Assembly: GCA_031082315.1 (NCBI GenBank)
Contig: JAVHLC010000002.1
Coordinates: forward strand, 147,362-211,361
DNA from: Thermodesulfobacteriota bacterium
GTDB taxonomy: Bacteria; Desulfobacterota; QYQD01
Direction: 5' to 3'
DNA: 64,000 nt
In this document: in pieces, positions 8,873 through 58,859 of the stretch
How the letters are laid out: every line of letters begins with the position of its first letter
Position numbering within the stretch: the stretch's first letter is position 1
Translations under genes and position numbers: made by a program
Notes under the pieces: generated by a model
Told to the model about the DNA's origin: nothing
The model's input: only the letters and a program-made list of their open reading frames with translations
Database searches by the model: none

Positions 8873-9196
8873 AATCTCGACAGGAGGCGTTAACAAAATC
8901 CAGGGGAACACCATGGGGGCTTTATTGACTACATTGAATAAGTGCGATAATGGAATCTTGAACAATGAAAAAGAGGGCCGGGCATGCCCCGACAGGCACG
9001 GTTTGATGCGCCTGGGACGCTTTTCTTCTATGTAAAGAATGGCCAGGCCAACTCGAATTCCACCCGCCGCAGGCAGACATCAAATGGTGCACTTACAATT
9101 TGAACATGCATAGCGAGCGAATACGATGCATTTTACCTTGCATACGGAGATTCCCCGTCCGCCCCAGGCGGACTGCGGGAAGCTTCAATTCACCTG

Positions 9197-10783
9197 TCAG
9201 TTGTGTTCGCGGGTCTTGAGGAAGACAATATCAGGCCAGTCTTCCATCACAAAACCAAGTCGCCACTCGCTGGGCGCCAGGTAGGCCAGGTGTCCTTCTG
9301 CATCATGCGCCATGTTGAGCAGGTGTTTCTTTTGAAACCCTTCCATTATTTTCTTGTCCCGGCAGCTGACCCATCGCGCCGTCGTGTATTCTACCGGTTC
9401 ATAGACCGCATCTACACCGTATTCGCCTTTGAGGCGTGCGACGGTTACGTCGAATTGTAGAATCCCCACTGCTCCCAGGATGTAGTCGTTTCCCTGAATC
9501 GGCCGAAAGACCTGAACCGCCCCCTCTTCCGCCAACTGCGTCAGGCCTTTTTGCAGTTGTTTGGCCTTGATGGGGTTCTTCAGGCGCACCCGCCGGAAGT
9601 GTTCCGGGGCAAAATTTGGAATGCCTGTGAACTTGAGGGGTTCCTTCTCGCTGAAGGTATCCCCGATCTTGATGGTTCCATGATTGTGGATGCCGATGAT
9701 GTCTCCGGGGTAAGCCTCTTCCACATTCATGCGGTCCTGAGCCATAAAAATAGTGGCATTGGCCAGGGCTACCTCTCTACCGGTCCGGTTGTGGCGGACT
9801 TTCATCCCGCGCGTGAATTTGCCTGAAACTATTCGGAGAAAGGCAATGCGGTCTCGATGCGCCGGGTCCATGTTTGCTTGTATCTTGAAAACGAACCCCG
9901 AAAATGGTTCTTCGTAGGGGTGGACTTCACGCGAGACGGCGGCCCTCGGCCCGGGGGCGGGCGCCATCTCTACGAAGGCGTCAAGCAGCTCCTTGACGCC
10001 AAAATTATTGATAGCGCTCCCAAAAAACACCGGGGTCTGGCTCCCTTTCAGATAGTGCCCGTGTTCAAAGGGGTTTGCCGCGCCCTCGATCAACTCCACG
10101 TCTCGGCGCAGGTCATCAGCCTGGGTGCCGAGGATTTCATCGAGCAGACTATCGGCCAGGTCGGTGACCGTTACCCCGTCCTGAATCCTAGTCTCTTGCC
10201 CCGGGGTAAAAAGACGCAGTTTCTTACGGTAGAAGTCATACACTCCTTTGAAGCGCTTGCCCCCTCCAATCGGCCAGGAGAGCGGCGTACACTCAATCTG
10301 GAGCTTGTCTTCGATGTCCGCAAGCACATCCAGGGGGGACATCCCGTCCCGGTCCAGCTTGTTGATGAAGGTTATGATCGGGGTATTACGCAGTCGGCAG
10401 ACCTCCATCAGTCTTTCCGTCTGCGGTTCCACGCCCTTTGCGCTGTCTATCACCATGAGGGCGCTATCCACCGCCGTGAGGACCCTGTACGTGTCTTCAG
10501 AAAAATCCTGGTGTCCGGGGGTGTCAAGCAGGTTTATCTCGAAATCACGGTAGTTGAATTTCATCACCGAAGTGGTAACTGATATGCCGCGCTCCCTCTC
10601 GATGGACATCCAGTCGCTGGTAGCATGACGGGCAGCCTTTCGGGCCTTCACGGCCCCGGCCAGCTGAATGGCCCCACCGAAGAGGAGCAATTTTTCCGTA
10701 AGGGTGGTTTTCCCGGCGTCAGGATGGCTGATGATGCCGAAAGTGCGCCGTCGGTCAACCTCTCTCTGATGTTCCTTGTTCAC
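9197..10783 (-). CDS. prfC: Peptide chain release factor 3 (RF3)
   Basis: 528 aa; GTPase motifs [30 protein letters not shown]; GTG start. Confidence 0.9.
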
Positions 10784-10785
10784 GC

Positions 10786-10890
10786 TATAAACCCCGAAAA
10801 AGATGGTTGTAAAACAAAAAAAATCGGGCCGTCAGGCCCGTTTGGTGTTTCGTAGTATACACAAAGATCAACGTTCAGTCAACGGCGGAT
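10786..10890 (-). promoter_or_regulatory. Repeated promoter-leader module upstream of prfC: -35 TTGACT / 17 bp / -10 TATACT, followed by hairpin GGGCCTGACGGCCC + U8 about 45 nt before the start codon
   Basis: Minus strand reads ...CCGTTGACTGAACGTTGATCTTTGTGTATACTACGAAACACCAAACGGGCCTGACGGCCCGATTTTTTTTGTTTTACAACCATCTTTT. Almost the same ~100 bp precedes the ABC-F gene at 13586-13690. Confidence 0.45.
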
Positions 10891-11143
10891 TGGGCCGCAT
10901 AGCGAAGACAAAGCTCGACCCGGTAGGTGATGGTGCGTTCCCGTCTCCGCCTTACATCTTATCTCAACATCGGGGGTGCCAAAGAGGATTGAACCTTTAA
11001 GCGATCAAAAACCGACCTTGAAACTGTTTTCTGTTGACAAGAAACCAGCTTCTAGCTAAGGTCGCGAAAGAACAAGATATTTGAAAGCTGAACGGCAGGC
11101 TCCTGGATGAAATTCCAAACCTGACCCCGGGAGGTGAAAAAGC

Positions 11144-11251
11144 ATGACCAAAGGCATGGACAGCAAAAAGAAAACCAAGAAGGAACCGGCCAAGACCCTG
11201 AAGGAAAAAAAGGCCGCGAAAAGAGCCAAGAAGGATGAGAAAAAACGCTAG
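11144..11251 (+). CDS. Possible small lysine-rich protein (35 aa; MTKGMDSKKKTKKEPAKTLKEKKAAKRAKKDEKKR)
   Basis: Strong RBS GGGAGGTG 6 nt upstream of the ATG; below the ORF-track size cutoff; its 3' end meets the convergent minus-strand exonuclease gene. Confidence 0.3.
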   Translation: MTKGMDSKKKTKKEPAKTLKEKKAAKRAKKDEKKR

Positions 11252-11877
11252 GAGCCTGCCGAATCTCCTGAATCCCTGATCTGCAGGAGTTTTTGAAAGA
11301 GTATCCGGCCCAGCCAGGCATCGGTGGCCGCATATCGAATTTGCGGCGGGGTCAGTGTGCTTCGTGCCCAATTGGAAGTCTGGGCTGCCTTGGAAATGCG
11401 TAGCCCCAGCAGAACGGCGGCAAGTCCCCGCAAGCCCTGATTTAGAAGACCCGCTTCTCTGGCCATCCTGTCGAGGTCCACGCACCGTGCCGGCTGGAAG
11501 GGGGCTAGTTCCTGCAATTCCCGGATATCATACGTCAGAGCGACGCCGGCCTTGGTGATCTCGGGCTGCGCCAAGAGGCGGCGGAGCGGTTTGGGCAGGC
11601 CGAGGTACTGCAACTGGAAAATGAAAACCTCCTGTTCGCCTGCGAGCTGCAGCAGTGACGGCGGGTAACTCTCTCCCTTTTTGAAGGCAGGCCTGGTTTC
11701 CGTGTCCAACCCTAGCAGGGTTTCCTTTGCCAAATGCCGGACCGCATCGGCCAGCTCCCCGGCAGTGCGGATGACGTGAACCGGTCCACGCCATTTGGTC
11801 ATAGGGCAGGCGTTGATTTCCTTTTTGTTCAGCCGCCGGGCAACTCCCCGGCCGTCGCCGGCCTCTTTTCCGGACAT
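11248..11877 (-). CDS. 3'-5' exonuclease domain protein (DEDDy / RNase D-like)
   Basis: LGLDTETRPAFKKGESYPPSLLQLAGEQEVFIFQ (Exo I DTE motif); C-terminal YAATDA (Exo III). An alternative start at 11802 (MTKWRG) is possible; 11877 has a GGGGAG RBS. Confidence 0.6.
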   Translation of the reverse strand: MSGKEAGDGRGVARRLNKKEINACPMTKWRGPVHVIRTAGELADAVRHLAKETLLGLDTETRPAFKKGESYPPSLLQLAGEQEVFIFQLQYLGLPKPLRRLLAQPEITKAGVALTYDIRELQELAPFQPARCVDLDRMAREAGLLNQGLRGLAAVLLGLRISKAAQTSNWARSTLTPPQIRYAATDAWLGRILFQKLLQIRDSGDSAGS

Positions 11878-11934
11878 TACTTATTCTCCCCGGTGATTGG
11901 ATATCTCTCCGATTTTGGAGGGAGGGCTAGAGAT

Positions 11935-13563
11935 TCAGCTCGCCATTGCCTGGCAGAGATCACCTCTGAGCCTCGTCACCTCCCCGTCTTCCAGATAATC
12001 GTCATAATTTGTCATCCGATCTATGATTCCGGTCGGCGTAATCTCGATGATCCGGTTCGCCACTGTGGCGACGGACTGGTGATCATGGGAAGCGAAAAGC
12101 ACCACCTCAGGGAAGGCGATGAGGCCGTTGTTGAGGGCGGTGATCGATTCAAGGTCCAGGTGATTGGTCGGCTCATCGAAGATGAGAGCGTTGGCGTCGG
12201 CCAGCATCATCCGCGCCAGCATACAGCGGACCCGCTCGCCGCCGGAAAGGACGCCGACCTGCTTGAGCGCCTCTTCGCCGGAGAAGAGCATCCGGCCGAG
12301 AAACCCGCGGACGAAGTTCTCGCCCTCGGTGATGGGCGCAAACTGGCGGAGCCATTCGATCAGGTTCAGGTCATGGGCGAAGTAGTCGCTGTTCTCCTTA
12401 GGAAAATAGGCGGTGGAGATGGTCTGGCCCCAGCGGAAGCTGCCGCTGTCCGGCGCCATTTCCCCGGTCAGGATCTGGAAAAGGGTCGTCCTGGCCAGGG
12501 TGCTGTCGCCGACAAAGGCGATTTTGTCCCCCTTGTTGACGGTGAGGGTTAAATTGTGCAAGGCCGTGACCCCGTCCACCTCCTTGCAGAGGTCCTTGAT
12601 CTCGAGGATGATGTCGCCGCAGGGCCGCCCGGGCTTGAACACCACATAGGGGTATTTCCGCGACGAGACCGGCATGTCCTCGATGGTGAGCTTTTCCAAC
12701 AGTTTTTTCCGCGAGGTGGCCTGCTTCGCCTTGGAGGCGTTGGAGCTGAAACGCTGGATGAACGCCTTGAGCTCGTCGGCCCGGGCCGTGGCCTTTTTGT
12801 TCTCATTCTGCCTCTGCTTGAGAATCAACTGGCTGGCCTCGTACCAGAAGTCGTAGTTCCCAACATACACCTGGATGCGGCCGAAGTCGATATCCGCCAT
12901 ATGGGTGCAGACCTGATTCAGGAAATGGCGGTCATGGGAAACGATAATGGTCGTGTTCTGAAATCGGAAAAGGAAATTCTCCAGCCAGGCGATGGATTGC
13001 TGGTCCAGATTGTTGGTCGGCTCGTCAAGCAGAAGGATGTCCGGGTTACCGAACAAGGCCTGCGCGAGCAGCACTCGCACTTTGTCGCCGCCATCGAGCT
13101 CCTTCATCTTCTTCTGGCGCAGATCCTCATGAATGCCGAGACCGTTGAGCAGCACCGCCACCTCGGATTCAATGTCATAGCCGTTCATCGCCGCGAATTC
13201 GCCCTCGACCTCCCCACAGCGAAGGCCGTCCGCTTCCGAGAGATCGGGCTTGGCGTAGAGCGCCTCCCGCTCGGCCATCAGTTGGTAGAGCCTTCGGTGC
13301 CCCATGATGACGGTATGGAAGACCGTTTCCTCGTCAAAGGCGAAATGGTCCTGCCGCAGCACCGCAATCCGCTCGCCGGCCCCGACCGTAATTTCTCCCT
13401 TGTCCGGTTCTATTTCGCCGGCGAGGATCTGGAGAAAGGTGGACTTGCCGGCGCCGTTGGCGCCGATCAGGCCGTAACAGTTGCCGGGGGTGAATTTGAT
13501 GTTGACGTCCTTAAAAATAACCCTCTTGCCGTAGGCGAGGGCGACATTCGATGCGTTGATCAT
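11935..13563 (-). CDS. ABC-F family ATPase (YbiT/EttA-like translation factor); two ABC cassettes, no transmembrane domain
   Basis: 542 aa; Walker A GANGAGKST and a second GxxGxGKS; signature LSGG motifs; Walker B LLLDEPTN. Confidence 0.85.
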   Translation of the reverse strand: MINASNVALAYGKRVIFKDVNIKFTPGNCYGLIGANGAGKSTFLQILAGEIEPDKGEITVGAGERIAVLRQDHFAFDEETVFHTVIMGHRRLYQLMAEREALYAKPDLSEADGLRCGEVEGEFAAMNGYDIESEVAVLLNGLGIHEDLRQKKMKELDGGDKVRVLLAQALFGNPDILLLDEPTNNLDQQSIAWLENFLFRFQNTTIIVSHDRHFLNQVCTHMADIDFGRIQVYVGNYDFWYEASQLILKQRQNENKKATARADELKAFIQRFSSNASKAKQATSRKKLLEKLTIEDMPVSSRKYPYVVFKPGRPCGDIILEIKDLCKEVDGVTALHNLTLTVNKGDKIAFVGDSTLARTTLFQILTGEMAPDSGSFRWGQTISTAYFPKENSDYFAHDLNLIEWLRQFAPITEGENFVRGFLGRMLFSGEEALKQVGVLSGGERVRCMLARMMLADANALIFDEPTNHLDLESITALNNGLIAFPEVVLFASHDHQSVATVANRIIEITPTGIIDRMTNYDDYLEDGEVTRLRGDLCQAMAS

Positions 13564-13585
13564 TCTTGCCTTCCTAAAACTGATG

Positions 13586-13690
13586 AATTCCCAAAAAGAT
13601 GGTTGTAAAACAAAAAAAATCGGGCCGTCAGGCCCGTTTGGTGTTTCGTATTGTACACAAAAAACAGCGTTCAGTCAACGGCGGATTGTG
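13586..13690 (-). promoter_or_regulatory. Second copy of the promoter-leader module (-35 TTGACT / 17 bp / -10 TACAAT; hairpin GGGCCTGACGGCCC + U8) upstream of the ABC-F gene
   Basis: Near-identical to 10786-10890; lies 25-125 nt upstream of the ABC-F start codon. Confidence 0.45.
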
Positions 13691-13881
13691 GATTGCTCAT
13701 GTCCGGGACCTTTCCCGCATGCCTCACCGGTGCAACCCTCTTCATAACCTTTCTCCATCCGTGCAACCTAAAGGTCGTCCTGAACGTGCTTTCCATGTAA
13801 GAAAGCTTTGAACATGCATAGCGAGCGCATTCCCCGCTGCTCGCGGCGGGGAATATCGCTGCGCGGTGTGGGGAAAAAGGG

Positions 13882-14229
13882 CTAAGCCTGCTGAGGCGCT
13901 GCGCCCTCTTCCTTCTTCTTTTTCTTCTTGGGCTTGGCTTCGGGGGGCGGCGCGGCGACTTTCTTTGCCTTGGAGGTCTCTTCCTTGGGCCTTGCCAAGC
14001 GCTCCGCCTTGATCGTGGCCAACTCCGCCGTTCGCTTCTCCGTGGCGTCGATCGCCCGCAAACGGGCCTGCGATTCCTTGATCTTTGCCTTCAATCCCTT
14101 GACGAGCACATCGCGCGCGATCTTTTTCTTGTCCGCCCCCTTCTCCGCAAGAAGCGCCAGACGCTTCTGCAACTTCACTTCCCATTCGGCCTTCTGTTTC
14201 AGCCGCGTTTCCCTGCGTTCGGATGCCAT
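13882..14229 (-). CDS. Hypothetical lysine-rich coiled-coil protein (115 aa; C-terminal AKPKKKKKKEEG tail)
   Basis: Coding-like composition; highly basic with KAK repeats; no recognisable domain. Confidence 0.45.
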   Translation of the reverse strand: MASERRETRLKQKAEWEVKLQKRLALLAEKGADKKKIARDVLVKGLKAKIKESQARLRAIDATEKRTAELATIKAERLARPKEETSKAKKVAAPPPEAKPKKKKKKEEGAAPQQA

Positions 14230-14613: not shown

Positions 14614-14802
14614 TTAAAGGGTTGCGGTCTTTTTTTCTGCGCGCATACGATCCCTGATCTTCTTGGCCCTATCAGGCATGGCATAATAGAAAAACTCCAT
14701 TTGCGCCTCAAGCCACTTGATCTTTTGAAGAGCCGGCCGCTTCCGGTACTCTTTTATCTGCTCTATCGTCCTATAATATAACAGTGGCGTTTTATTCATC
14801 AC
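14614..14802 (-). CDS. Small protein (62 aa) overlapping the upstream nucleotidyltransferase gene by 11 nt; possible partner of a toxin-antitoxin-like pair
   Basis: MMNKTPLLYYRTIEQIKEYRKRPALQKIKWLEAQMEFFYYAMPDRAKKIRDRMRAEKK; operonic overlap with the NTase gene. Confidence 0.35.
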   Translation of the reverse strand: MMNKTPLLYYRTIEQIKEYRKRPALQKIKWLEAQMEFFYYAMPDRAKKIRDRMRAEKKTATL

Positions 14803-15301
14803 CCCACTCCTTTTCTATCTTTCTAAGATAATAGACATCGGCAATATCTTGAGGTCTGCCGACCTTCTTCTTCATCTCAATAAGCCGTTTTATAGGGACA
14901 AGTGGAATCCTCACATTTCCAGCCTTGATATTTTTCCGTTCTCCATAAACCTTATCAAAGTCAAACGGTTCCTCTACAAATACATCCAATAGGAAATATG
15001 GATTCTGCGGGTCATAAACGCTGAAAACCTTCATCCCCTTTTCACGAACCCACTTGTCCCTCATCTCCTTACTGCACAGATCTTCAAGTTTCACCGGAAT
15101 TTTGGGCCTGAAGCCTAACTCCTTCATGACCTCCACAAACTTTTCAAGATTATGCCGCTCCAGATGAACAACGATATCTATATCGCCTGTGGCTCGTTCA
15201 ATCCCATAAAGATTGACAGCCACTCCACCGGCGACGAGATAGCGAACCTTCTTATTGTTCAGGGTTGAAAACAGGTTAAGGATGTTTAATTTATCGCTCA
15301 T
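14792..15301 (-). CDS. Pol-beta-superfamily nucleotidyltransferase-fold protein (MNT-like)
   Basis: GG...G-x9-TGDIDIVV (GS...DxD NTase signature); 169 aa; preceded by a 41-nt leader identical to the one before the AlbA_2 gene. Confidence 0.6.
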   Translation of the reverse strand: MSDKLNILNLFSTLNNKKVRYLVAGGVAVNLYGIERATGDIDIVVHLERHNLEKFVEVMKELGFRPKIPVKLEDLCSKEMRDKWVREKGMKVFSVYDPQNPYFLLDVFVEEPFDFDKVYGERKNIKAGNVRIPLVPIKRLIEMKKKVGRPQDIADVYYLRKIEKEWGDE

Positions 15302-15395
15302 ATCGTCTTAAAGTCCATACCTTCTACGAACGTTTCAATACCGGTCATTGCCTCCAGGATATTTTTCAGGTAGTTCCAGTTTAGGAAATGTCATT

Positions 15396-16766
15396 TCATT
15401 TTTTCACCACTTCCCAATAGCCACCCTTGTCCGGGCCGATGCGCTTGAGAACTCCTTTTTTCCTAAGTCTGGTTATATGGTATTTTACTCCGTCTTCGGT
15501 TATCCCTATAACCGTTGCAAGTTCTTTTTGAGTAATATCTGATTTCTTAGTAATAGCTTCTATGATTTTCTGGGTAGTTTTCTGGGTAGTTTTCTGGGTA
15601 ATATCTTCTACCCCTTTTTCACCCAACTTTTCAAATCCTTTCTTGCCCTCAAAATAACTCCTACGCTTAAAAGTAGTAATAAACTTTGTCCCTACCTCGC
15701 TGAATTCAGTATCAGGTTCTTTTGAGAGCATAAGCTTGATACCCCTGCCCCATTTCTCTATGAAATGAACACGATGAAGCATCTCTGCAATCAGCTCGTT
15801 TCTTCTTTCTGAGACCATCTTTGTCCTGATGGTCTCTATGGTCAGCCCACCATAAAGCAGCCCCGGGCTCCTTATTTCAACACGATCTTTAAAAACAGCG
15901 ATGTTAACAGAATCAAACTCCCGGTAATCCCTATGGCAGAAGGCATTGATTATTGCTTCTCTGAAAGCCGCCTTGTCAATTTCAGGCACATCTACCCTTC
16001 TTAACCCTTCCAGCTTCATGCCGATATGAATATTTTTCAGGATGTATCCTTCGGCTTTTTCGATCAGGTAGAAGAGATCTCCTTCAAAATCCTGCATATC
16101 AATGGTAAACGATGTGTCTGTTGTGCCGAAAACAGCGCATCTGAGACGGGCATTGGGGAAAAATGCCTGCGGTTTTTTGGCAAATAAGATTACGGCTGCA
16201 TTGAGGGGCTTACCGTCAGACATGAGCTTTAATTTTTCAAGCGCATTGCGTACAGTGTCATATTTCAGCACTGAACCTTTCAAAAAAGATTTGACTTTAG
16301 TTGCGCTTATGTCTGTGATCTTTGCTTCTTTGCAAATTTCGGTATCCCATCTTAATTTATCCTTATTCTTTCCGAGAATCAGCCCTTCGAGTTCTTTAGC
16401 GCTTAATTGCCGGTCTTCATCCGCCACCCTTATATATGCCCTGCCATATGCAAAATAGGGAATATCGTTACCCTTAAACCGGACTTTAATACATGCCTTG
16501 CCGTCTATTTCGATACGGTTTATGTGAGGATAGATTTTGGGTTCAATATGGTCTGCAATGGATTTTGATACATCACGGATTGTTTTTTCCGTTACGTTCT
16601 GACCGGCTACAATGCCATTGTTTTTAATTCCAAAAAATAATTCTCCGTGTTGATGTTTATTGAGAATTGCCGCTATAGATATGATCGCCTCTTTAATCTC
16701 AGAAGTAGATTTTTTAAGTTCCAATGTTTCAGATTCAATAAATTTCATATTAAGCTTACGACTCAT
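15396..16766 (-). CDS. Schlafen/AlbA_2-type divergent AAA ATPase with C-terminal HATPase-like and wHTH regions (RecG-C-terminal-like 'putative transcriptional regulator' family)
   Basis: 456 aa; N-terminal region resembling an AlbA_2 fold (…ELKKSTSEIKEAIISIAAILNKHQHGELFFGIKNNGIVAGQ…). Internal tandem repeat TQKTTQKTTQK from three 12-bp DNA repeats at about 15570-15605. C-terminal HTH (ITQKELATVIGITEDGVKYHITRLRKKG). Confidence 0.55.
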   Translation of the reverse strand: MSRKLNMKFIESETLELKKSTSEIKEAIISIAAILNKHQHGELFFGIKNNGIVAGQNVTEKTIRDVSKSIADHIEPKIYPHINRIEIDGKACIKVRFKGNDIPYFAYGRAYIRVADEDRQLSAKELEGLILGKNKDKLRWDTEICKEAKITDISATKVKSFLKGSVLKYDTVRNALEKLKLMSDGKPLNAAVILFAKKPQAFFPNARLRCAVFGTTDTSFTIDMQDFEGDLFYLIEKAEGYILKNIHIGMKLEGLRRVDVPEIDKAAFREAIINAFCHRDYREFDSVNIAVFKDRVEIRSPGLLYGGLTIETIRTKMVSERRNELIAEMLHRVHFIEKWGRGIKLMLSKEPDTEFSEVGTKFITTFKRRSYFEGKKGFEKLGEKGVEDITQKTTQKTTQKIIEAITKKSDITQKELATVIGITEDGVKYHITRLRKKGVLKRIGPDKGGYWEVVKK

Positions 16767-16852
16767 ATCGTCTTAAAGTCCATACCTTCTACGAACGTTT
16801 CAATAGAAGAATTTTATGATCATCTCCCCTCTTCCCGCCTGTCGATGGAGCT

Positions 16853-17713
16853 TCAATTACTTAAGGACGGCTCGGCGCACCCTCCGTCTAGGTCGTAGTT
16901 CGCAATTGCCAATTCAGTCGTGATTTGGCGCTTGCAAACTACTGCTGCCAGCACGCTGTGCCGACGCAGCACGGCATAGTTCCATTCCGCAGCGGAATAG
17001 AGCCTCTTGATGCTGGGCGAGTCCGCATTTGACACGAGGACCAAAGCCCCCCGCCTGGAGGCTTCGCCAACAGCAGCCGCAAGGCGTTCCTGGTCTTCCC
17101 AGCAAAAAAGGCGTTCATTGTACTTAATGAAATTGTTCTGGTTGTGCTGGACCGTGTATGGAGGATCTACGTAAACGAAGTCACCTGCACCTGCTTCATA
17201 CAGCACTTCTTCAAAGTCACCACAGACTAAATGCGCAGACCGTAACGCATTCGCGACCGTTGAGAAATCATCATCGGGGAATGTGACAGTATCCTTGGTT
17301 CCTTTTGGCACGTTGAAAACGCCTTGCCTATTCACACGATAGAGGCCATTGAAACAAGTCCTGTTTAAGTAGATAAATCTGGCCGCACGAGAAGCAGCAG
17401 TTCTCGGCTTGCTGGTGCGGATCCGGTAGTAGTGTTCCTTACTGTGACGCTGCCGATGCCATAGAAGTCTCTCCCATACCAATCGCCAGTCGTCCCGTAT
17501 TGCGTAGTATGTCTCAATAAGGTCGTGATTCGCATCGCTGAGATAAGCATGACTAGGGCATAGGCCGAAAAAGACAGCCCCACTACCCAAAAACGGCTCG
17601 AAATACCGGTTGTATGACTTAGGAAAAACCGTACGGTGGTCAGACACAAGCCACCTCTTGCCTCCCGCCCATTTTAAGAATGGTTTCACACGCTGCCGGG
17701 TGTCCACAGTCAT
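16853..17713 (-). CDS. DNA N6-adenine methyltransferase, Dam/D12 class
   Basis: KWAGGKRWL (SAM-binding motif I), EPFLGSGAV, DPPY (catalytic motif IV); 286 aa. Confidence 0.85.
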   Translation of the reverse strand: MTVDTRQRVKPFLKWAGGKRWLVSDHRTVFPKSYNRYFEPFLGSGAVFFGLCPSHAYLSDANHDLIETYYAIRDDWRLVWERLLWHRQRHSKEHYYRIRTSKPRTAASRAARFIYLNRTCFNGLYRVNRQGVFNVPKGTKDTVTFPDDDFSTVANALRSAHLVCGDFEEVLYEAGAGDFVYVDPPYTVQHNQNNFIKYNERLFCWEDQERLAAAVGEASRRGALVLVSNADSPSIKRLYSAAEWNYAVLRRHSVLAAVVCKRQITTELAIANYDLDGGCAEPSLSN

Positions 17714-38470: not shown

Positions 38471-38480
38471 AATAGAAAAG

Positions 38481-57073: not shown

Positions 57074-57577
57074 GTGAAATTTTTTGTAATGGACATGCCG
57101 AAACGTCTTTATATAGACCCGAAGGAATGCAAGGCCTGCGGCGCATGTGAGGAGATATGCCCGGAGGTCTTCAGGGTCGATGAAAATCTCGGGTATGCCC
57201 AGATACTGGATTTAGAGACGTATCCGGAAGACAAGATCAACGAGGCCATTGTTGCCTGCCCGGGCCGCTGCATTGACTGGAATGAATCAAAGGATGCCGA
57301 AAATCCCCCTGTATCCCCCTTTTCCAAAGGGGGAAGTAATAAGATCCCCCCGTTAGTAAAGGGACAAACTAAAACCCCCCTTTTGCTAAATGGGCAAGCT
57401 AAAATCCCCCCTTTAACAAAGGGGGGCGAGGGGGGATTTTCAGGTGACAACGAATACTTTTGTCAGAAATACCAGGAACCCATCAAGACAAAGCCGCCGG
57501 CCTGTCCCCATCCCCTGGATTACTGTCAGTTCAGGTCTTCCTGCCCGGTGCATTTCTTAGAGAAGGAGCGTAGTTAA
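57074..57577 (+). CDS. Small 4Fe-4S ferredoxin-like ORF whose reading frame continues through an inserted G/C-run palindromic repeat
   Basis: N-terminal ~65 aa: CKACGACEEICP...ACPGRC (single-cluster ferredoxin pattern). Residues ~75-130 (ENPPVSPFSKGG...IPPLTKGGEGGF) are encoded by the repeat at 57296-57445. Confidence 0.45.
   Translation: MKFFVMDMPKRLYIDPKECKACGACEEICPEVFRVDENLGYAQILDLETYPEDKINEAIVACPGRCIDWNESKDAENPPVSPFSKGGSNKIPPLVKGQTKTPLLLNGQAKIPPLTKGGEGGFSGDNEYFCQKYQEPIKTKPPACPHPLDYCQFRSSCPVHFLEKERS
57296..57445. repeat. G/C-homopolymer palindromic repeat (AATCCCCCTGTATCCCCCTTTTCCAAAGGGGGAAG ... CGAGGGGGGATT); copies at 57683-57760 and 58150-58230
   Basis: Three copies sharing CCCCC(T)TTT..AAAGGGGG hairpin arms and the GACGAGGGGGGATT end. 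Confidence 0.55.
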
Positions 57578-58859
57578 TTTACATCCGAAAACTCCGGTTT
57601 ACTGGATGCAGCGGTCAGCAGTCAGCTATCAGCTTTCAGCTTAAGCTGTTGTTTGTCTTATTTTTTACTGACGGCTAAACGCTAAAATCCCCCTCAATCC
57701 CCCTTTTCCGAAGGGGGAAGTGTCTCTCCTCCCTTTGAAAAGGGAGGTTGGGAGAGATTTAAGAATACTCTCTCAACCAACTAAAATGACACAAGAGAGG
57801 CGCTTGCAAAACTGCTTGTCATCCCCGAATGCCTCTATCGGGGATATGGTTTTTAAGGCAGTTAGAACCAGATTACCGCTCAGAATCGCTACGGGAATGA
57901 CAGAATGGAGGCTTTTGCAAGAAACTCTCAATTTATTGATATTCTTATTTTCTCTGTGTGCTCTATGGTTAATCCTCCCCCCCGCCGGTCCCGATTTTTT
58001 TCCTCAATCGCCGGTCCGCATCTATTATTTGCCTTACATCATCACCAGTTATCTCCCAGGAATACTTTCCCTTCGCATCGCGCCTCAGACGTATGCGGAG
58101 TTTGCTGTCGGCCTTGGATTGTTTTCCGTCACGTTTGGATATTTCATTTGAAAATCCCCCTGTATCCCCCTTTCCCAAAGGGGAACCTAACATATTCCCC
58201 CCCTTACTAAAGGGGGACGAGGGGGGATTATTCTCATCGGCCTTCGCTGATGGGCCTGCAATGGGATTGGCCCTCTCGTCTGAAGGGCTGCAATTAAAAC
58301 TAGCCAGTGACAGGAGGAGGATTATACCTATATGTGCCAATAACCTTAGCATGTTCCTGTGGCCAACTCCTGGGGCATACATATCGTTTATTATCGGTAA
58401 GGATGCCGGTGGACTGAAATATCTGCTAGCTTTCAACAGCCCGAAATGCTACAGGTTCTTAGATTTGGAACTCAGAAACTCATGAAGAAAAATGCGTTCT
58501 ATTCCTGATTTCTTGATTTCCAGATTCATTTAAGTGAGCCTCTTACAAAACTCCATTTTTTGTCATTCCCGCAACGCTTTTGAGCGGGAATCTGGTTTTT
58601 AAACCCGTATCCGTCCCCGAGTGCCTGTATCGGGGATAAAGGCATTCGGGGATGACAGACAATAGAATCGCTCGGAGATGTTTGGATTACCCACTTGAAA
58701 TGAGAAAGAACCTAAAAATATGTTTTTTTTCTTTGCGCCCTTTGCGCCTTTGCGGTGAAAGGAGAAAATCAATTTTATATTGGCAAAAAGGGAAGTTAGG
58801 GCTATCTTGTACGCATTTTTGAAACAGGATAACCCATTTTAAAGGGGGGCAAGGCACGG

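Follow-up and report, generated by a model that had tools for sequence, protein, structure and literature searches.

Does a regulatory scheme or a rearrangement explain why two translation-factor genes carry the same leader? The question is raised by a direct repeat that lies immediately 5' of prfC and of an ABC-F ATPase gene on the minus strand of the window (the whole stretch of 64,000 nucleotides that was analysed). The repeated unit, called the cassette below, is probably the whole expression signal of prfC, present twice around a 2.8-kb ABC-F block, and its leader is predicted to be a sensor-less terminator resembling that of GraL in E. coli.

Genes and segments at the locus

Relatives' loci are given as L numbers. 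Genes and segments in the region of the two copies were assigned as follows:

9197–10783, minus strand: prfC (peptide chain release factor 3, RF3), GTG start, 864 bits against NF001964
10787–10892, minus strand: cassette copy A (direct repeat family D9), which comprises all of the prfC promoter and 5' UTR up to 3 nt from the start codon
10893–11129, no strand assigned: segment of about 237 nt between block and copy A, not common to L103 (blastn)
11130–13582, minus strand: block common to L103, with 19 nt of native ABC-F 5' UTR including the SD, the ABC-F gene, the exonuclease gene and a small ORF (boundaries from blastn; Pfam, NCBIfam)
11144–11251, plus strand: 35-aa lysine-rich small ORF (MTKGMDSKKKTKKEPAKTLKEKKAAKRAKKDEKKR), convergent with the exonuclease gene, good SD
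11248–11877, minus strand: 3'-5' exonuclease gene inside the block (Pfam/NCBIfam)
11935–13563, minus strand: ABC-F gene, ATG start, YbiT-like, best model NF011646/PRK15064
13583–13688, minus strand: cassette copy B (family D9), fused to the ABC-F gene
13882–14229, minus strand: lysine-rich ORF of 115 aa, upstream of copy B and with conserved counterparts in L013, L012 and L002

The ABC-F protein scored 629 bits against NF011646/PRK15064, under that model's cut-off, and was closest to this YbiT-type model, not to the EttA, Uup or ARE subfamilies; with the ARE-ABCF models every score was far below cut-off. The initial annotation had named RF3 and an EttA/YbiT-type ABC-F; RF3 and the YbiT likeness stood, and EttA was dropped. 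The prfC message has a weak SD (GGGG) and a GUG start. For the 115-aa ORF, Pfam and NCBIfam gave no match.

The unique DNA between the two cassettes consists of the block (11130–13582) and the segment at 10893–11129, 2.8 kb in total. A plus-strand promoter-like site in this segment (TTGACA-17-TAAGGT, about 11034–11062), read by eye and absent from the promoter-scan output, faces the small ORF and thus places copy A in a divergent promoter region. Small genes of 35–41 aa were also called at the equivalent ABC-F-adjacent spot in L103, L105, L106 and L109. On the minus strand at about 10960–10990, GGTTCAATCCTCTTTGGCACC resembles the T-arm and 3' acceptor strand of a tRNA and was called by neither ARAGORN nor Rfam; as an impression only, it may be left over from an integration site at the border of the unique inter-cassette DNA.

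Architecture of the cassette

The two copies (10787–10892 and 13583–13688) form a direct repeat of 106 nt with 92% identity and a 57-nt perfect core, and the minus strand is the functional one; the duplicated element that had been described 5' of both genes is therefore real, with refined bounds. A 28-nt core (AAACGGGCCTGACGGCCCGATTTTTTTT) occurs exactly twice in the 64-kb window versus 0.00 occurrences expected by chance. The duplicated unit spans the entire expression signal, from about 10 nt upstream of the -35 element to within 3 nt of the prfC start, and contains these elements:

10854–10882, minus strand: sigma70-type promoter of copy A (-35 TTGACT 10882–10877, 17-nt spacer, -10 TATACT 10859–10854)
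10811–10840, minus strand: terminator-like element of copy A (hairpin 10840–10825, A, U8 10823–10816, G, UUUU)
13650–13678, minus strand: sigma70-type promoter of copy B (TTGACT 13678–13673, 17 nt, TACAAT 13655–13650)
13607–13636, minus strand: terminator-like element of copy B (hairpin 13636–13621, A, U8 13619–13612, G, UUUU)

The promoter-like sites were the two best of the 9–17 kb region in the promoter scan and matched 10/12 positions each, in agreement with the near-consensus promoters noted before; the transcription start site (TSS) of copy A is predicted at about 10848–10845. The hairpin (CGGGCC-TGAC-GGCCCG: six G-C pairs, 4-nt loop, -12.6 kcal/mol, z = -3.5 by folding) starts 13 nt past the -10 element, roughly at +6 to +8 of the predicted transcript, and not about 25 nt downstream of the promoter as first reported. 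Its stem has the features of an intrinsic terminator (at least 5 bp, GC-rich, short loop), and the U-tract fits as well: in both copies A + U8 and then G + U4 begin 1 nt past the stem. Beyond this tract the 5' UTR continues, U-rich, for about 30 nt. Measured from the U-tract, the start codon lies 32 nt away for prfC (GTG 10783) and 48 nt away for the ABC-F gene (ATG 13563), so that the distance of about 45 nt originally given for both holds for the latter only. The spurious, near-identical plus-strand ORFs attributed to the repeat are present in the ORF list.

When terminator-like hairpins of the window were required to lie <100 nt ahead of a gene on their own strand and >400 nt past the end of the preceding gene on that strand, only those of the two cassettes qualified. 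No other terminator-like hairpin was found between the end of the exonuclease gene (11248) and copy A, or between the end of the 115-aa ORF (13882) and copy B.

Occurrence in the window and in relatives

An nhmmer profile search over the window and all relatives' loci gave no further cassette in the window beyond the two. When one genome per species was scanned with the core, it was found in three close relatives only, besides unrelated terminators: L013 has both copies in the same synteny as the window, L012 has the ABC-F copy and L002 the prfC copy. These three species-representative genomes hold 1 or 2 core matches each, always at prfC or the ABC-F gene; the counts are lower bounds, because the relatives' genomes are MAGs. 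The remaining core matches were to an unrelated terminator in Oxalobacteraceae and other Pseudomonadota. The terminator-like element of copy A is identical in L013, L012, L002 and L119.

A REP- or MITE-like origin of the cassette, as a mobile or dispersed repeat lying upstream of two genes by chance, is very improbable. The window is indeed rich in other short repeats and palindromic elements, which would suit such an origin. Repeats of that type are present in many copies per genome at varied positions, however, and here even a profile search found 2 copies in 64 kb, and the core matches of the three cassette-bearing relatives (1–2 each, as lower bounds from MAGs) all lie at prfC or ABC-F. 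The unit also lacks terminal inverted repeats, and its ends match a promoter and a 5' UTR. A generic REP element had been named beforehand as the outcome that would overturn the leader assignment; the search for further copies left that assignment in place.

REP-like elements of another kind (a GC palindrome, e.g. TTCCCCGCCGCGAGCAGCGGGGAA, then GCTCGCTATGCATGTTCAAA) were seen at 13808–13853 and 9111–9195 of the window, at L103:8658–8779 and in L002, in positions downstream of prfC, upstream of cassette B and, in L103, downstream of ABC-F.

Origin of the two copies

In L119, whose RF3 is 92% identical, prfC is preceded by TTGACC-17-TATGAT, then 11 unrelated nt, then an identical CGGGCCTGACGGCCCGAUUUUUUUU. 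This leader lies within a 385-nt intergenic region whose other flanking gene is divergent; because of that orientation the L119 hairpin cannot be the terminator of the upstream gene, and the same promoter, hairpin and U8 at this position support the terminator-like structure inside a 5' leader that the initial annotation had recognised. Comparison of the window with L119 gives 100% conservation for hairpin and U8 and unrelated sequence for the 11–13 nt before the hairpin. A recognisably homologous prfC leader (GAACGGGCC...GGCCCGUUUUUCAUUUUAUGAACCAUC) is also present in L033 (RF3 76%), and the promoter hexamers of prfC are kept in L040 (TTGACT-17-TATAGT) and in L039 (TTGACT then TATGAA, spacer 17–18 nt, read from the sequence). 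As judged by these alignments, the cassette is shown to be ancestral and native to prfC. As a separate observation, the L119 prfC leader has an inserted palindrome, about 50 nt long (TGGGAGTCTGTCGGACTTTAGGG...CCCTAAGTCCGACAGGCTCCCA), just past the terminator (L119:5922–5975).

L002 (RF3 96.6%) offers an 'empty site', in which the 115-aa ORF, the upstream flank of copy B, one cassette, the downstream flank of copy A and prfC are contiguous and the whole ABC-F/exonuclease/small-ORF block between the 115-aa ORF and prfC is missing. L103 (ABC-F 93%) possesses the block of ABC-F, exonuclease and 35-aa ORF but no cassette; blastn aligns it with the window over 13582 to 11130, and the alignment sets in exactly at the end of copy B. 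In the window, therefore, the flank is followed by cassette B and by the block, which retains 19 nt of native ABC-F 5' UTR; about 237 nt further on come cassette A and prfC. Since the block keeps only those 19 nt, a copy of the prfC signal now drives the ABC-F gene. The comparison fits two structural events: an insertion of the block that duplicated the cassette, or a deletion of the block in L002 through recombination between the repeats.

At three sites in the alignment of the copies, both paralogues of one genome have a common derived base. The derived states common to both copies are CCGCCG and ACACC in the window and CATTTTTTT in L013, and the outgroups L002, L012 and L119 have the other state. 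Such lineage-specific substitutions, common to both copies, indicate that the copies were homogenised by gene conversion after the duplication.

Shared regulation of the two genes by translational status or another common signal had been suggested at the outset. The sharing is accounted for by the structural event instead, the 2.8 kb being absent in the single-cassette L002: it comes from a rearrangement that copied the prfC signal and is not evidence of a dedicated regulon. The locus is a clean natural case in which an entire promoter and 5' UTR was copied as a unit to drive a newly placed gene, with an 'empty site' relative (L002) for comparison and later concerted evolution between the copies.

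Searches for a sensor

A conditional attenuator has a mutually exclusive antiterminator upstream of the terminator, and commonly a leader-peptide uORF or ligand aptamer; the cassette has none of these. Folding, which had been proposed as the check for alternative antiterminators, gave the terminator hairpin only. From the -10 element to the stem there are 13 nt, of which about 6–8 are transcribed, and this pre-hairpin sequence is not conserved in L119. An antiterminator pairing through GGCCC just upstream of copy A was discarded, GGCCC being missing from copy B. A uORF upstream of the hairpin is not possible. Downstream, the U-tract contains a TTG-initiated uORF whose end lies 1 nt ahead of the GTG of prfC and, in the other leader, overlaps the ATG of ABC-F (ATGA); across 17 leaders there was no consistent uORF, frame or stop position, and the leaders of L110, L112 and L107 have no downstream uORF, so that uORF-coupled control was rejected. 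Pairing of the U-tract with the SD/start region was predicted, at a level no better than in shuffled sequence (z = -0.4 to -1.6).

Rfam gave no match for the cassette at gathering thresholds, and relaxing the limit to E <= 10 for the window region and for two leaders of ABC-F orthologues yielded only sub-threshold noise (for example STnc50, 26 bits versus a cut-off of 55). In the literature searched, nothing linked prfC or ybiT to leader termination, and Rfam together with that literature held no cis-regulatory element for prfC or for housekeeping YbiT-type ABC-F genes.

Leader hairpins in other lineages

Among 69 prfC loci with enough upstream sequence, 12 had a sense hairpin and U-tract <=250 nt upstream (antisense, 1/69). 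Nine of the 12 hairpin/U-tracts end 24–43 nt before the start codon, and several follow a conserved TTGAC -35 element. The stems differ wholly between lineages (CGGGCC, CCGGGC, GGCGAAGA, CGGTTTGCCG and others), and in at least L044, L055 and L056 the gene upstream of the prfC leader hairpin appears divergent by ORF analysis.

Six ABC-F lineages, with orthologues at 79–88% identity, have a common hairpin CCACRGG-loop-CCYGUGG + U6 about 20–65 nt before the ATG (97.9% of cells paired, two pairs with compensatory changes):

L105:6798–6863, ABC-F leader motif
L107:2385–2450, ABC-F leader motif
L109:6964–7029, ABC-F leader motif
L112:2925–2990, ABC-F leader motif
L115:2425–2490, ABC-F leader motif
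L116:2432–2497, ABC-F leader motif

In the fuller form CGCGAA-CCACRGG-loop-CCYGUGG-U6-N-U4 it was observed before YbiT-like ABC-F genes in Desulfuromonadia- and Desulfobulbia-type lineages; the leaders of L105, L107 and L109 have an additional upstream hairpin. The six-lineage motif had no Rfam match and is a candidate for an undescribed cis-regulatory motif in its own right. The ABC-F leader of L110 has a different hairpin and U-tract. The gene upstream of the ABC-F leader hairpin is divergent in L110, L112 and L116; in L105, L107 and L039 a co-directional gene ends just upstream of the leader hairpin. Hairpins start 8–21 nt past the -10 element across various leaders, i.e. at or near the 5' end, and in L059, L061, L063, L103 and L113 the leader hairpin has no adjacent U-tract.

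In a crude survey of 70 divergent intergenic regions, 7 had a leader-sense terminator, and 5 of these 7 precede prfC or ABC-F; another is an Rfam-confirmed TPP riboswitch in L058, which served as a positive control for the hairpin/U-tract detector. In E. coli, neither the prfC leader nor the ybiT leader contains a terminator hairpin; the 5' UTR of prfC there includes a comparable U-rich stretch (AUUUUUCGUUUUCAAC), with no such hairpin ahead of it. A motif UUUU-N-CAAC/CAAG follows the terminator in several leaders and also occurs in the E. coli prfC leader; it is not essential, since the palindrome insertion breaks it in L119.

The recurrence at both gene families across the phylum, the compensatory stem changes and the divergent contexts suggest a real control point for factors that cope with problematic translation. 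With ABC-F orthologues having terminator-type leaders of their own, a common regulatory logic for prfC and ABC-F leaders is plausible.

Proposed function and alternatives

In the reading that we consider probable, the duplicated prfC signal contains a GraL-like leader terminator without a sensor. RNA polymerase starting at the cassette promoter would meet a canonical intrinsic terminator soon after the start, at about +8 to +32, so that many transcripts would be expected to stop early: a large fraction would end at about +30 to +37 as RNAs of about 30–40 nt, and only read-through transcripts would become prfC or ABC-F mRNA. The hairpin would in addition halt transcription coming from upstream (the 115-aa ORF or the ABC-F/exonuclease operon) and insulate each gene, since the stretch from each preceding gene to the cassette contains no further terminator. 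If read-through is controlled, this would have to occur in trans or kinetically (e.g. by Nus factors, cold-shock RNA chaperones, NTP/ppGpp effects on elongation or Hfq), since there is no room for an antiterminator, no conserved uORF and no aptamer, and the pre-hairpin sequence is not conserved. TSS, 3' ends and termination efficiency are all predicted here. Among the points against a leader terminator are that termination as near as about 30 nt to the start site has less documentation than that in classical leaders, and that it would seem wasteful to put a strong constitutive terminator behind a near-consensus promoter unless regulation or the short RNA matters.

The main rival, to which we give a small but real chance, is that hairpin and U-rich tract serve as a 5' UTR stabiliser or translation enhancer, with termination minor or incidental: a stem-loop near the 5' end would protect the mRNA from 5'-end-dependent decay, and the U-tract would bring ribosomal protein S1 or Hfq to a message whose SD is weak and whose start is GUG. 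The position of the hairpins so close to the 5' end across leaders is what such a role would call for, and the relatives that keep the hairpin without an adjacent U-tract suggest that the conserved function could be the hairpin rather than termination; the U-rich stretch of E. coli prfC lacking a preceding terminator hairpin, and the folding of the U-tract onto the purine-rich SD/start region, which was not significant, point the same way. Against this, a hairpin with A-U8-G-U4 behind it is the textbook form of an intrinsic terminator, most leaders have the U-tract directly at the stem, and it is hairpin and U8 together that are perfectly conserved between the window and L119 next to unrelated sequence. 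In the window, moreover, the stem is preceded by 6–8 unpaired nt, more than 5'-protecting stems usually have. That the hairpin is a mere 3' terminator of upstream co-directional genes, with a fortuitous promoter and expression from real promoters elsewhere or by read-through, is improbable. It would account for the lack of any other terminator-like hairpin between the upstream gene ends (11248, 13882) and the cassettes and for the co-directional gene ends in L105, L107 and L039, yet the same promoter and hairpin precede prfC in L119, and the ABC-F leader hairpins of L110, L112 and L116 stand, in divergent intergenic regions. The -35/-10 hexamers are also conserved where the surrounding sequence has diverged, and copy A faces a plus-strand promoter and the small ORF across a divergent promoter region. 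Quite improbable, too, is a cassette that is primarily a small-RNA gene, whose RNA of about 30–40 nt (a Hfq-type 3' module) acts in trans with read-through secondary. GraL and the 5'-UTR-derived sponges ChiZ and IspZ (PMC2836576, PMC6829880, PMC7815308) are precedents, promoter and terminator are both strong, and two identical copies would double the dosage; the 5' single-stranded 'seed', however, would have about 6–8 nt and is unconserved in L119 (ACGAAACACCAAA versus AGTGGATCAGA) or in more distant leaders, and neither gene has another evident promoter.

For the leader-terminator reading, co-regulation of prfC and ABC-F in this genome is a by-product of the rearrangement and may be functionally apt. 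A wider proposal, which we regard as unlikely, is that sensor-less promoter-proximal terminators form an undescribed clade-wide control layer for RF3 and YbiT-like ABC-F, as ribosome quality-control factors, in Thermodesulfobacteriota. The layer would respond to one signal common to both, trans-acting or kinetic in nature (NTP/ppGpp status, Nus factors and cold-shock RNA chaperones are examples), and the short RNAs left by termination may also work in trans. If true, it would explain how a prfC cassette could replace the unrelated CCACGG-type ABC-F leader without loss of function, and why the two copies were kept identical by conversion or selection.

Other repeats and islands

A second duplicated upstream module of 59 nt (88% identical) was observed at 15282–15340 and 16747–16805 of the window, where each copy takes in the 5' UTR and first codons of a gene, the two genes being neighbours on the minus strand of a defence-like island:

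14792–15301, minus strand: AbiEii-like nucleotidyltransferase, with the second duplicated module
15396–16766, minus strand: Schlafen/AlbA_2-HATPase_c_4-HTH protein, with the second duplicated module
16853–17713: D12 adenine methyltransferase, beyond the Schlafen/AlbA_2 gene

In L103, a defence-type island (L103:9664–15367) follows the ABC-F/exonuclease block and encodes an N6_N4 methyltransferase, two ThsB_TIR proteins and a guanylate-cyclase-like protein; the flanks of the block are variable islands in both the window genome and L103.

Further repeats lie in the distal part of the window. Heptad-like GCTGA(A/T)AG / CAGC(T/A)TTCAGC arrays (families D1, D3 and D4) occupy many intergenic sites at 38479–62134, a 74-nt palindromic repeat has three copies (43777, 54288 and 54972), and CCCCC/GGGGG-rich repeats were seen at 57299–58229. 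Between 52600 and 57000, repeat families D2, D7, D10, D12, D13, D15 and D20 are spaced by about 2.8–2.9 kb, a spacing that points to tandem duplication of a gene-sized segment, with paralogues of about 71–91% DNA identity.

Comparison with known systems

Leader terminators as a class are already known, and the cassette is an undescribed, structurally ordinary instance. With classical attenuators and riboswitch platforms (trp, pyrBI, TPP) it has in common an intrinsic terminator between promoter and start codon; it differs by having no sensor domain, antiterminator or Rfam match. Attenuation of ARE ABC-F genes (msrD, vmlR, lmrC; 10.1101/2021.11.29.470318, PMC8546547) likewise places a terminator in the leader of an ABC-F gene, but it needs a leader-peptide uORF and alternative hairpins, whereas the cassette has 6–8 nt before the hairpin and no conserved uORF. 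The ribosome-mediated form further combines an antibiotic-sensing leader ORF with an ARE-type ABC-F; the window has no such leader ORF, and its ABC-F is of the YbiT-like housekeeping type, outside the ARE subfamily.

Premature termination in E. coli 5' UTRs, e.g. in the ispU leader, was mapped by experiment (PMC7815308), whereas the 3' ends of the cassette are predicted. Some of the E. coli 3' ends give sRNA sponges, and the genes and taxa are unrelated to the cassette. Term-seq in E. coli includes a 5' UTR 3' end with a 6-bp stem and eight U (PMC7815308).

The closest documented analogue, by likeness of arrangement, is the E. coli greA leader, where two-thirds of transcripts stop at a leader terminator with an AU7GCU2 tail to give the GraL RNAs (PMC2836576) and which participates in autoregulation (PMC6829880). 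greA encodes a transcription factor and the cassette genes encode translation factors, in another clade and without sequence homology; GraL has an 11-bp stem and RNAs of 40–60 nt versus a 6-bp stem and a predicted length of about 30–40 nt; and termination and trans/cis activity are experimental for GraL, whereas termination at the cassette is predicted. Both nevertheless have one or more strong promoters and an intrinsic terminator within a few tens of nucleotides in the leader of a housekeeping factor gene, with no alternative antiterminator structure known and most transcripts expected to end as short RNAs, and the tails resemble each other (AU7GCU2 and AU8GU4). With a strong promoter, a leader terminator of a factor gene and no known antiterminator, the cassette falls into the GraL-type class, which is a functional class and not a homology family.
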